The position numbers and the translations under genes are program-made. A model generated the notes under the pieces. That model was not told the origin of the DNA. It ran no database searches and saw only the letters and a program-made list of their open reading frames with translations. DNA of 21,378 nucleotides from Candidatus Micrarchaeota archaeon (lineage in GTDB: Archaea; Micrarchaeota; Micrarchaeia; Norongarragalinales; UBA8480), in the NCBI GenBank assembly GCA_043805855.1, contig JAZDHP010000019.1, positions 1 through 21,378 on the forward strand. Direction: 5' to 3'. Of the stretch, positions 13,331-15,197 are shown piece after piece. The stretch's first letter is position 1, and each line of letters opens with the position of its first letter.

Positions 13331-13586
13331 TGGGCCTACCCGGATTTTCGTTATCGGAAAAGTTTTCTTTTCCCAAGGCTTTTTTCTTTACAAAGAAAAA
13401 AGGCTTATCGAACCGGGGATCTTTCCCACGTCAAGGGAACATCTTTGGCTTCAGCTTTTAATTAAAAGCTATTAATTTACCAATGTCGAAAGGTGCTCGG
13501 CCAGAGGTCTTGAGGTTGACGCGAACGCATTCGCGTCGCAACTTTCCCCCTGCGGCCGTGAGCGGCCTTTTCTCGACTATAGGCCC
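13331..13586 (-). tRNA. tRNA-Val(GAC) with three introns (15/16, 22/23, 59/60)
   Basis: Exons 13586-13572, 13482-13477, 13443-13407 and 13344-13331 join to a 72-nt cloverleaf: GGGCCTA TA GTCG AGTGGTA AGAT G TTCCC TTGACGT GGGAA AGATC CCCGG TTCGATT CCGGG TAGGCCC A. Each junction has a 4-bp central helix with 3-nt bulges (GTCG/CGAC, TGGT/GCCA, TTCG/CGAA). Anticodon at 13432-13430; no encoded CCA. Confidence 0.9.
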
Positions 13587-13609
13587 ACTTACCTAATTGT
13601 TAGGTGCGG

Positions 13610-14266
13610 TTACTTTTTTATATCTAACATTGGAAGCGTGCCAGTCTTAATCCAACCATTATATCGGTCTAGATTTCTTGGATTATTGCTTCCTATTAAT
13701 TCAAACCATTTTTTAGTGCATGCTATTCCACTAATTCCGACATCTCCGCTTGAATCATACGCAGGTAATCCAACTTCTCTAAGCATTATTTTAAGCTGTT
13801 TTCTCAATGGAGTGCTTTCACTAGATATTAGTACTAATGGTCGTCTATATTGTTCGGATTTACGTGCAGACATTGATCCATCTGTATCGAAAAGTCCCCT
13901 AATTACATTAAAGCGTTTCTCTAAGGGTAATTTCATGATCCATTTGGGAATTTCTATTTGTCCTTTTTTACCAACTGGAAAGTCTAAACTTGTTAATAGT
14001 TCTGCAAATTTTTTGTTGTTAATTACTGCATTTATTGTGTTTGTATGTTTGTCTTTATAGAAATACGCGTGTACGCCGAATCTTTTTAAAATCGGGTTTA
14101 TAAATTGAGTGAGGTATTCTAAATCTCTTGTTGCGTTTCCACTTATAAAAATTCGAAAATAATATCTATTGTTTGGTTTTTTGAATCTAACAATGCAACC
14201 GTCGCCCATCAAAACGCCAAAGAATTCGAGAAATTCGTCGCTTGTTGTTTCTATTTCGTTTAGCAC
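13610..14266 (-). CDS. Free-standing two-motif LAGLIDADG homing endonuclease-like protein
   Basis: EFFGVLMGDGC and NVIRGLFDTDGS, both keeping the catalytic Asp. No intein splicing motifs. GTG start. Confidence 0.88.
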   Translation of the reverse strand: MLNEIETTSDEFLEFFGVLMGDGCIVRFKKPNNRYYFRIFISGNATRDLEYLTQFINPILKRFGVHAYFYKDKHTNTINAVINNKKFAELLTSLDFPVGKKGQIEIPKWIMKLPLEKRFNVIRGLFDTDGSMSARKSEQYRRPLVLISSESTPLRKQLKIMLREVGLPAYDSSGDVGISGIACTKKWFELIGSNNPRNLDRYNGWIKTGTLPMLDIKK

Positions 14267-14330
14267 TAAGGTCTTTAGTTGTAAGCGGCTTTATTTTTTT
14301 CGGAACACGTCGTTGCCGGTGAAAAGTAAT

Positions 14331-14400
14331 AGTTTCTTTTTCCAAAGTTTCTTTTCTTCCACTGAAAGGCTTCTTTTCTTTGCGAAAGAAAAGAAGGGTT
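14331..14400 (-). repeat. Intergenic copy of the hairpin element found in both 59/60 tRNA introns
   Basis: Minus strand AACCCTTCTTTTCTTT-CGC-AAAGAAAAGAAGCCTT...TTTGGAAAAAGAAACT versus intron AAGCCTTTTTTCTTT-NN-AAAGAAAAAAGCCTTGGGAAAA. Confidence 0.7.
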
Positions 14401-14403
14401 TCA

Positions 14404-14538
14404 TGGACTCACCGGGATGTTCGAGCTTTTGAGAATTTCTTTTTTCCCAAGGCTTTTTTCTTTTGAAAGAAAAAAGGCTTATCGAACCCGGAGTCGCCCC
14501 CACGCCAAGGGGGTATGTTACCGTTACACCATGAGCCC
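14404..14538 (-). tRNA. tRNA-Ala(GGC) with a 63-nt intron at 59/60
   Basis: Exons 14538-14481 and 14417-14404 give GGGCTCA TG GTGT AACGGTA ACAT A CCCCC TTGGCGT GGGGG CGACT CCGGG TTCGATT CCCGG TGAGTCC A. G3:U70 and A73 alanine identity elements present. Full BHB: T-stem, TTCG/CGAA, bulges ATA and CAT, AGC/GCT. Confidence 0.93.
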
Positions 14539-14592: not shown

Positions 14593-14976
14593 TTATTTTA
14601 TGAATTCTACGTTTGGGCGGTTTTCAAAAGCTGGGTCGCCAGTTAGGAAACTTGCGTTCAGTTCAAGCGCCTTTTGGTATCCGATTGCGTCTGTGTAGGA
14701 TATGTCAAATCTTTGTTTCTTGAGTTTTAAGCGTAGGCGCATTGCTTGTTTTAATTCCGATTCAGTTGTTCTTGTTAAGTACTGTGCAAATCTTTCAAAG
14801 TAATTATCTGCATTTTCTTCGGTGGTTTCCCGTAGAAGTATGTAGTATAGCTCGGCTAGCATGAATTCTGTTGTGTGCAATGAAGTTGCTTCGTTTAATA
14901 CTTCTAGGTATTTTTTATTGCCCTTTATGTACTCTATCACTGCGTATGTGTCGACTACGTATTTCGTTGAAATCAT
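14593..14976 (-). CDS. vapC: PIN-domain toxin, VapC family
   Basis: Likely start 14976 (ATGA overlap with antitoxin stop). YVVDTYAVIE, LAELYY, ISYTDA, FLTGDPAF acidic PIN tetrad. Confidence 0.88.
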   Translation of the reverse strand: MISTKYVVDTYAVIEYIKGNKKYLEVLNEATSLHTTEFMLAELYYILLRETTEENADNYFERFAQYLTRTTESELKQAMRLRLKLKKQRFDISYTDAIGYQKALELNASFLTGDPAFENRPNVEFIK

Positions 14977-15197
14977 TCTTTCCATCCCTCTTGAGCTTCC
15001 TTCTTTAATTCAAGTGTGCTGCGTTTTGACTTAAAAGTTCCAAACAAGTCGCGAAGTTCTAATACGGGGCGTATGTTCACATGAAGTTGCATACTTTCTC
15101 GTAAATTTAAATCATCGGCTGTTTTCTTTGGAATAATAATCCCCCATGAATTACCGATCCTCTTTGGCGTAACGTTGACCTCTTCCATTTCACTCAC
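14973..15197 (-). CDS. vapB: AbrB/MazE-type antitoxin, VapB
   Basis: KRIGNSWGIIIPK AbrB motif, LFG..K C-terminal pattern; directly upstream of and overlapping the PIN gene. Confidence 0.85.
   Translation of the reverse strand: MSEMEEVNVTPKRIGNSWGIIIPKKTADDLNLRESMQLHVNIRPVLELRDLFGTFKSKRSTLELKKEAQEGWKE

Follow-up and report, generated by a model that had tools for sequence, protein, structure and literature searches.

A probable free-standing LAGLIDADG homing endonuclease gene between two intron-bearing tRNA genes of a Micrarchaeota genome, and its relatives at tRNA gene ends

Organization of the tRNA-Ala and tRNA-Val locus

The stretch of DNA studied here, referred to as the window, is the whole of contig C19 (21,378 bp) from the genome assembly of a Candidatus Micrarchaeota archaeon (G000; 1.03 Mb, 41% G+C, 92% completeness). 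Three features follow one another on its minus strand, namely a gene for tRNA-Ala(GGC), an open reading frame (ORF) encoding a protein of 218 aa with two LAGLIDADG motifs, and a gene for tRNA-Val(GAC). An earlier reading of the same sequence, in the following called the original prediction, had described these genes as co-oriented, the endonuclease stop codon as lying 23 nt from the 5' end of tRNA-Val, and both tRNA genes as interrupted at position 59/60 by related introns. All of this was confirmed at the coordinates given below, with the stop codon TAA at 13612-13610; the description of the tRNA-Val gene was correct as to the intron at 59/60 and had omitted two further introns in the D arm. 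The following features were recognized at the locus, where introns are bounded by bulge-helix-bulge (BHB) motifs:

14404..14538, minus strand: tRNA-Ala(GGC) gene; exon 1 14538-14481, exon 2 14417-14404, discriminator A at the end
14418..14480, minus strand: tRNA-Ala intron at 59/60, 63 nt, BHB; carries the genome-wide hairpin module (AAGCC, T-rich arm/A-rich arm, GCCTTGGGAAAAAAGAAA)
14345..14394, minus strand: variant copy of the module in the tRNA-Ala 3' trailer, outside any intron (nhmmer E 5.6e-5)
14289..14300, minus strand: A/T-rich TATA-like box (AAAAAAATAAAG), about 28 nt before the endonuclease start codon, read from the sequence
13610..14266, minus strand: free-standing single-chain LAGLIDADG endonuclease gene, 218 aa (motifs, Pfam, alignment, predicted fold)
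13613..13624, minus strand: last codons of the ORF, GATATAAAAAAG, doubling as a TATA-like box at -38 to -27 of tRNA-Val
13331..13586, minus strand: tRNA-Val(GAC) gene; four exons, 13586-13572, 13482-13477, 13443-13407 and 13344-13331
13483..13571, minus strand: tRNA-Val intron 1 at 15/16, 89 nt, G+C-rich, relaxed BHB
13444..13476, minus strand: tRNA-Val intron at about 21/22, 33 nt; central helix TGGT/GCCA, bulges AAA and AAG
13345..13406, minus strand: tRNA-Val intron at 59/60, 62 nt; TTCG/CGAA, bulges ATA and AAT, inner helix absent

The joined exons of tRNA-Ala, which features G3:U70, amount to 72 nt and agree in type with the tRNA-Ala(GGC) of genome G001 from the same genus, a gene free of introns; those of tRNA-Val match the intron-less tRNA-Val of G002, likewise of this genus, at 70 of 72 positions. 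Since both neighbouring tRNAs are complete on their own, the endonuclease ORF lies outside any intron or intein, as had been proposed. A 4-bp central helix between two 3-nt bulges at the junctions is common to all four introns of the window. The motif is strict (hBHBh') in tRNA-Ala, composed of the T-stem CCGGG/CCCGG, the central helix TTCG/CGAA, the bulges ATA and CAT and the inner helix AGC/GCT, and splicing there results in the T-loop TTCGAT/T, the slash marking 59/60. All three introns of tRNA-Val are relaxed, the outer or inner helix being missing, among them the one at 15/16 (central helix GTCG/CGAC, bulges AGA and ATT, inner helix AAAGG/CCTTT). Within the first 39 nt of the two 59/60 introns, 37 positions are identical (BLAST E 1.2e-11), and the sequences diverge thereafter. 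The sole call of ARAGORN in the window was tRNA-Ala with wrong limits, and Rfam at the gathering score gave zero matches in the window.

The endonuclease gene and its product

The 218-aa protein contains the motifs LMGDGC and LFDTDGS, with D22 and D129 as the probable catalytic residues. Both aspartates, which the original prediction had described as intact, are invariant in 25 of 25 aligned homologs, together with G21, G23, K101, G124, F126, D127, T128 and G130. The protein matched the Pfam family LAGLIDADG_3 (PF14528) with an E-value of 6.9e-12 (45.9 bits versus a cut-off of 22.5), and its matches to PF00961 and PF03161 were below the respective cut-offs. The AlphaFold2 model (predicted local distance difference test, pLDDT, 95.8; predicted template modelling score, pTM, 0.91) adopts a pseudo-dimeric alpha-beta-beta-alpha-beta-beta-alpha fold, for which the best Foldseek matches in the PDB were I-Tsp061I, I-DmoI and PI-PfuI (structures 2dch, 2vs7/2vs8 and 1dq3), with a probability of 1.00 and a template modelling (TM) score of about 0.7; bI3 maturase and WhiA were also among the fold matches. 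The same three enzymes were reached by the sequence profile, at E-values from 3e-10 to 1e-4. These enzymes of rRNA BHB introns and inteins share the two acidic LAGLIDADG motifs and the fold with the window gene, whereas the latter stands alone between tRNA genes, outside intron or intein, and is only 15-20% identical to them.

The GTG start codon at 14266 is replaced by ATG in contigs from related strains, which supports this start. The box at 14289-14300 may represent the promoter of a leaderless endonuclease mRNA, judging from its composition and distance. A short motif, ACCGGCAA(C/G)(G/C)ACGTG (CCCGGCAAGCCAC in G012, a genome of another family), is kept upstream of the ORF in three carriers of the gene (window 14267-14330; locus L002, about 1440-1470; locus L003, about 2160-2200).

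Between G000 and G002, the endonuclease gene showed a nonsynonymous divergence (dN) of 0.178 and a synonymous divergence (dS) of 1.50, corresponding to a dN/dS ratio of 0.12 and thus to purifying selection. The amino acid identity of the endonuclease amounts to 75% with G002 and 53% with G012. This divergence parallels that of the neighbouring Mrp-like ATPase (75% and 46%, respectively), and the identity is above that of ThiF (61% and 31%).

Presence of the gene and of the introns in related genomes

The Ala-Val locus was compared among six alleles from G000, three further genomes of the same genus (G001, G002 and G003), G012, and L138, the single locus returned by a metagenome scan:

G000 (window): endonuclease present; tRNA-Ala with 59/60 intron; tRNA-Val with three introns, one at 59/60
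G002 (same genus, 75% aa identity): endonuclease present; tRNA-Ala with 59/60 intron; tRNA-Val intron-less
L138 (metagenome contig, 91% nt identity): endonuclease present; tRNA-Ala outside the contig; tRNA-Val with two D-arm introns, T-loop intact
G012 (another family, 53% aa identity): endonuclease present; tRNA-Ala intron-less, 0.9 kb away; tRNA-Val with one D-loop intron, T-loop intact
G003 (same genus): endonuclease absent; tRNA-Ala intron-less; tRNA-Val intron-less
G001 (same genus): endonuclease absent; tRNA-Ala intron-less; tRNA-Val intron-less

The order Mrp, tRNA-Ala, endonuclease, tRNA-Val is kept between the two families, and tRNA-Val(GAC) follows the endonuclease gene in the window, G002, G012 (L013) and L138. 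Within the genus, the endonuclease is present or absent at an otherwise conserved site, a pattern compatible with gain as well as with loss. At the empty site of G003, which is bordered by the same genes, only 67 nt separate tRNA-Ala from tRNA-Val; compared with G002, the flanks show 86-89% and tRNA-Val 100% identity. Ortholog-level matches (E < 1e-70) were obtained in only 3 of the 41 genomes of the order sample. The endonuclease gene is therefore maintained yet optional.

In the original prediction, the locus had been interpreted as a collaborative homing system, in which the enzyme cuts intron-less 59/60 sites, and T-loop introns break the site, protect the host copy and spread along with the enzyme. 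The arrangement suits this idea, with distances of about 150 bp between the free-standing gene and the intron of tRNA-Ala and about 200 bp between the gene and the T-loop intron in tRNA-Val. The expected co-occurrence of intron and endonuclease was found for tRNA-Ala within the genus, where both are present in G000 and G002 and both are absent from G001 and G003 (2/2 versus 0/2). For tRNA-Val, however, it was not: the 59/60 intron occurs in only one of four carriers and is absent from L138, G002, G012, G001 and G003, so that the presence of this intron and that of the endonuclease are uncorrelated among the relatives. The uninterrupted tRNA-Val T-loop in three of the four carriers (G002, G012 and L138) speaks against the claim that the endonuclease mobilises the 59/60 introns or is held off by them. 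Furthermore, the carrier G012 possesses an intron-less tRNA-Ala(GGC), and the carrier G002 keeps an uninterrupted Ala-type T-arm, CCGGGTTCGATTCCCGG, elsewhere in its genome (C27:27646), intact Val-type and Ala-type T-arms both being found there. In favour of the collaborative model, every GGTTCGAT T-loop of G000 is interrupted (none uninterrupted, five with an intron), and an uninterrupted GGTTCGATTCC T-arm is absent from this genome. The joint occurrence of the Ala intron and the endonuclease concerns four related genomes and features about 150 bp apart, for which linkage or co-conversion suffices as an explanation; the genus pattern probably reflects one event each. The 59/60 intron of tRNA-Val is a recent gain beside an already old endonuclease gene. 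Since the six alleles compared show the 59/60 introns to be independent of the endonuclease, the locus is not the collaborative system that had been hoped for.

Intron content of tRNA-Ala and tRNA-Val is fluid among related strains, as seen in population contigs. In tRNA-Val, L138 carries an intron at the same place as the window intron at about 21/22, and the 15/16 intron is shorter both in L138 and in a contig of run X1 (38 nt shorter in the latter). In tRNA-Ala, positions 14417 and 14481 are directly adjacent in a contig from metagenome run X4, equivalent to the window gene minus its intron, and another population contig carries a different insert of 108 nt at the intron site, beside the endonuclease gene. 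Contigs of four groundwater DNA runs cover the stretch in pieces, each of them short of the whole locus.

The downstream end of the endonuclease gene appears to coincide with the tRNA-Val promoter, whose function is proposed here from position and conservation. The sequence GATATAAAAAAG at -38 to -27 of tRNA-Val is identical in the window, G002 and L138, and in G001, where the endonuclease is missing, a TATA-like box (GTATAAAAAATA) precedes tRNA-Val by an equal distance. For the seg and mob genes of phage T4, embedded promoters for downstream genes have been described to favour retention (PMC2988022).

On the other side of the locus, the window encodes a PIN-domain protein (Pfam 4.7e-11) with a small upstream partner (14593-15197), a VapBC-like pair adjoining tRNA-Ala. 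The pair was found beside tRNA-Ala in G000 and G002 and is absent there in G003. The tRNA-Ala/Val locus is a hot spot of gene gain and loss.

T-loop introns and the intron module across the genome

A strict T-arm/acceptor scan, which requires TTCRA, G1, T8 and R9 and misses some tRNAs, recovered 22 distinct candidate tRNA genes in G000, 19 with a T-loop insertion and three uninterrupted; two looser versions of the scan (2940 and 353 rows) were discarded as too permissive. In total, 16 of the insertions are 55-78 nt long and end with a 3' junction YGAA..AT. Because 19 out of 22 scanned genes are affected, the occurrence of T-loop introns in both tRNAs flanking the endonuclease is to be expected. 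ARAGORN with intron search reported 11 tRNAs in G000 and Rfam five above the cut-off; neither serves as an inventory.

A profile of the 5' module of the introns detected 21 full-length copies in G000 (E < 1e-3), located in introns at 59/60 and elsewhere as well as in 3' trailers. The module is about 45 nt long and consists of AAGCC, a T-rich/A-rich hairpin and GCCTTGGGAAAAGAAA (for example, C53:5829-5877, C8:41784-41833 and C17:8388-8436); trailer copies come straight after the discriminator base, one of them following the tRNA at C53:5829. RNAalifold on the 21 copies supported the first hairpin, and a second one, suspected by eye, was unsupported by the same analysis. Five near-identical copies constitute the youngest subgroup, which suggests a recent burst. 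Both introns flanking the endonuclease belong to this subgroup, as collaborative homing would have it; however, three of the five copies are remote from any LAGLIDADG gene, one of these being in a 3' trailer.

The original prediction had further tied the spread of the introns to the endonuclease. This does not hold, as the intron family was detected in at least 16 other tRNAs of G000, far from any LAGLIDADG gene, and in other tRNAs of G003 and G001, both of which are without the endonuclease at the Ala-Val locus. Moreover, the diverse T-arms of 19 out of 22 tRNAs could hardly be covered by one enzyme with a site of about 20 bp. The 59/60 introns are independent of the neighbouring LAGLIDADG gene, and for the T-loop introns collaborative homing can largely be rejected.

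Multi-intron tRNA genes and 'intron transposition' have been reported for Thermoproteales and for ARMAN-2/Micrarchaeum (PMC3239211, PMC4090602), and ARMAN-2 was described to feature heavy tRNA disruption, introns at 59/60 and a three-unit splicing endonuclease (PMC3239211). The tRNA genes of G000 resemble these cases in having introns at 59/60 and at other non-canonical positions, up to three per gene and related across tRNAs. G000 also encodes a splicing endonuclease, an EndA open frame of 412 aa (C10:28401; PF01974 at 78.5 bits), resembling the three-unit epsilon2 enzyme and putatively able to process non-canonical sites. The intron load is heavier in G000, with T-loop insertions in 19 of 22 scanned genes compared to 56% of tRNA genes disrupted in ARMAN-2, and, as a further difference from these cases, the shared module of G000 is also found in 3' trailers. 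How protein-spliced introns spread between archaeal tRNA genes was presented as an unresolved matter in PMC4090602.

A LAGLIDADG family at tRNA gene ends

To place the window gene among its relatives, a motif scan was carried out on one genome per species; 593 stretches were matched, 438 of them encoding relatives, and 80 loci were kept. The loci are from Woesearchaeota, Pacearchaeota, Nanoarchaeota, Micrarchaeota, Iainarchaeota, Altiarchaeota and several bacterial phyla of the Candidate Phyla Radiation (CPR). At the 80 loci, where neighbouring tRNAs were called by ARAGORN, Rfam and the T-arm/acceptor scan combined, a tRNA end was located within 100 nt of the ORF stop in 65 cases (51 co-oriented, 13 convergent and one enclosing), and the stop codon often falls inside the tRNA gene. 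For comparison, a listed tRNA lies within 100 nt of the end of only 14 out of 903 open frames of at least 150 aa in G000, and the LAGLIDADG genes themselves account for two of these. Best-hit pairs shared the anticodon of the adjacent tRNA in 37 of 53 cases (shuffle mean 2.4, maximum 11), a count that is inflated by relatedness among the loci, and the same tRNA-specific clades were obtained in a quick tree with Shimodaira-Hasegawa-like approximate likelihood ratio test (SH-aLRT) support. The invariant residues, the fold, the 65 of 80 loci and the optional presence at the locus bear out the original prediction insofar as it recognized an intact, free-standing homing endonuclease gene tied to tRNA.

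Of the 59 family-adjacent tRNAs called by ARAGORN, 39 are without a predicted intron, a further point against collaborative homing. Introns of the D arm were also considered as a shield of the adjacent tRNAs and rejected in this role, as contiguous 5' halves were counted in 31 of 48 tRNAs beside an endonuclease versus 27 of 40 other tRNAs of the same loci, with no excess; this comparison, too, speaks against the collaborative model.

A second member of the family in G000 (C5:74578-75345, plus strand) has its stop codon inside the 3' end/T-arm of tRNA-Gln (C5:75327-75447, minus strand), which is one of only three scanned tRNAs of this genome with an uninterrupted T-loop. A weak paralog (C42:23300-24700, minus strand) was rejected as tRNA-linked, being a LAGLIDADG intein in a long ribonucleotide-reductase-like frame. 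Many family members (P0009-P0039, about 320-335 aa) are extended at the N-terminus by some 100 aa, which resemble a helix-turn-helix domain; this extension is lacking in the window protein. No description of tRNA-flanking LAGLIDADG genes was found in the literature searched, subscription journals and supplements being outside the search.

Detailed analysis of the family loci also revealed signs that tRNA genes themselves are targets. At three loci (L027, L058 and L072), a cassette of endonuclease and intact tRNA is bracketed by both halves of a second, broken tRNA, the 5' piece of which reaches to about position 15-24 and the 3' piece of which starts from about position 44; the acceptor strands of the two pieces pair, and the intact tRNA of the cassette is a different allele from the broken one. 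Such relics were located as follows:

Bracketed cassettes: L027:1782-2881; L058:1554-2715; L072:1562-2733
5' relic only: L016:1575; L075:1599; L082:1665

The bracketed cassettes look like the footprint of an insertion into a tRNA gene accompanied by a replacement copy. Furthermore, at locus L049 (the same place as L005; genome G008, Micrarchaeota; 1894-2748), a homolog with a frame of 252 aa fills a 760-nt BHB intron at 30/31 of tRNA-Thr(TGT). The intron is closed by a perfect BHB (CACC[TGT], a 10-bp helix and GGTG[AAT]), and after in silico removal of the 760-nt segment ARAGORN calls tRNA-Thr(TGT). The same tRNA-Thr has a second, short intron near 37/38. A paper on ORF-bearing BHB tRNA introns was not found by the literature search, within the same limits as above. 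Together, relic halves and the intron-borne member point to mobility of the family.

Interpretation and alternative explanations

The results are, in our view, rather probably explained by a free-standing single-chain LAGLIDADG homing endonuclease gene, belonging to a family of DPANN archaea and CPR bacteria seated at tRNA gene ends, beside which the 59/60 introns spread independently. Alleles lacking its gene would be cut by the enzyme in or close to the promoter and the 5' portion of tRNA-Val. During repair of the break, the endonuclease gene would be copied along with adjacent sequence, and its overlap with the promoter of an essential tRNA would favour its persistence. The 59/60 introns would be ordinary BHB introns, removed by the splicing endonuclease of the cell, and their module would have spread through nearly all tRNA genes of G000 independently of the LAGLIDADG gene, the tRNA-Ala intron being at most a passive passenger of the endonuclease via linkage or co-conversion.

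The closest parallel in arrangement is SegB of phage T4, a free-standing GIY-YIG endonuclease that is encoded between the genes for tRNA-Arg and tRNA-Ile and targets the region between tRNA genes (PMC2988022). Both are free-standing homing endonucleases in a tRNA cluster, inherited with the flanking tRNA region; SegB is a GIY-YIG enzyme of a phage, whereas the family described here is of the LAGLIDADG type, cellular, and comprises hundreds of members, each linked to a particular tRNA species. Collaborative, or trans, homing in phages, as reported for mobE with the nrdB intron (PMC2790892) and F-CphI with the psbA intron (PMC6083498; the concept is also treated in PMC2988022), is similar in that a free-standing endonuclease gene adjoins an ORF-less intron of a conserved gene. 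The phage cases concern group I introns, whereas those of G000 are protein-spliced BHB introns that occur genome-wide without an endonuclease, with intron-less sites in carriers.

Several observations weigh against the favoured explanation. The adjacency counts come from related, non-independent loci, and a relic tRNA fragment was looked for around the gene in the window, G002 and G012, where none was seen. The identity of tRNA-Val in the carrier G002 and the non-carrier G003 means that a target wholly inside tRNA-Val would be cut in the carrier too; consequently, the homing site must include the upstream flank, or homing at this locus has ceased. The joint occurrence of the Ala intron and the endonuclease, and the interruption of all GGTTCGAT T-loops in G000, are also predicted by collaborative homing. 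Finally, the housekeeping-like divergence, the synteny across two families and the strong purifying selection equally fit a domesticated host function.

Such a function is the strongest alternative, although we regard it as unlikely. The LAGLIDADG protein would have lost homing and taken over a host role, for example by binding DNA at tRNA promoters or by assisting pre-tRNA processing. Besides the dN/dS ratio of 0.12 and the conserved synteny, the appearance of bI3 maturase and WhiA, both co-opted LAGLIDADG folds, among the fold matches agrees with this. However, a host role is difficult to reconcile with the absence of the gene from G001 and G003, where the loci are assembled and contain the same tRNAs, with its ortholog-level presence in only 3 of 41 genomes, with the invariance of both catalytic aspartates across 25 homologs, and with the mobility of the family indicated by relic tRNA halves and the intron-borne member.

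Less credible, and quite improbable in our estimation, is a stranded element, the targets of which are no longer found and which survives since its deletion would remove the overlapping tRNA-Val promoter. The TATA-like box inside the last codons, kept in three carriers, the T4 precedent for embedded promoters (PMC2988022) and the identical tRNA-Val of carrier and non-carrier are in line with this explanation. Nevertheless, a promoter would impose constraint on no more than about 12 nt at the end of the gene, whereas the whole 218-aa frame is under purifying selection, its catalytic residues are kept, and in G003 the gene is absent while tRNA-Val is intact. Collaborative homing by way of the T-loop introns is very improbable in view of the intron-less sites in carriers and of the intron family in genomes without the endonuclease at this locus.

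Alongside the favoured explanation, in which the window gene is a homing endonuclease gene at a tRNA gene end, a wider reading can be tentatively formulated, which seems doubtful and, taken as a whole, unlikely. According to this reading, tRNA genes would be the homing sites of a very large, undescribed LAGLIDADG radiation in DPANN archaea and CPR bacteria, whose members would spare their targets in three ways: by lying beside the tRNA gene or in its promoter, as in the window; by a replacement tRNA brought along, with the broken halves left behind, as at L027, L058 and L072; or by riding inside a BHB tRNA intron, as at L049. The window gene would then descend from an intron-borne ancestor, and endonuclease breaks would contribute to the tRNA intron load.

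Significance

The locus represents a clean natural experiment, as it combines an empty site with a carrier lineage that is old and under purifying selection; in addition, the overlap with a promoter may explain how a free-standing endonuclease gene persists. It also illustrates that standard tRNA finders miss most tRNA genes in genomes such as G000. Beyond the window, the family appears specialised on tRNA gene ends across two domains of life, and its intron-borne member at L049 would, for the first time, allow classical homing of an archaeal tRNA intron to be tested directly. If the wider reading were true, endonuclease breaks together with co-conversion would be one motor of, or one selective pressure behind, the extreme tRNA intron load and tRNA gene fragmentation of Micrarchaeota.

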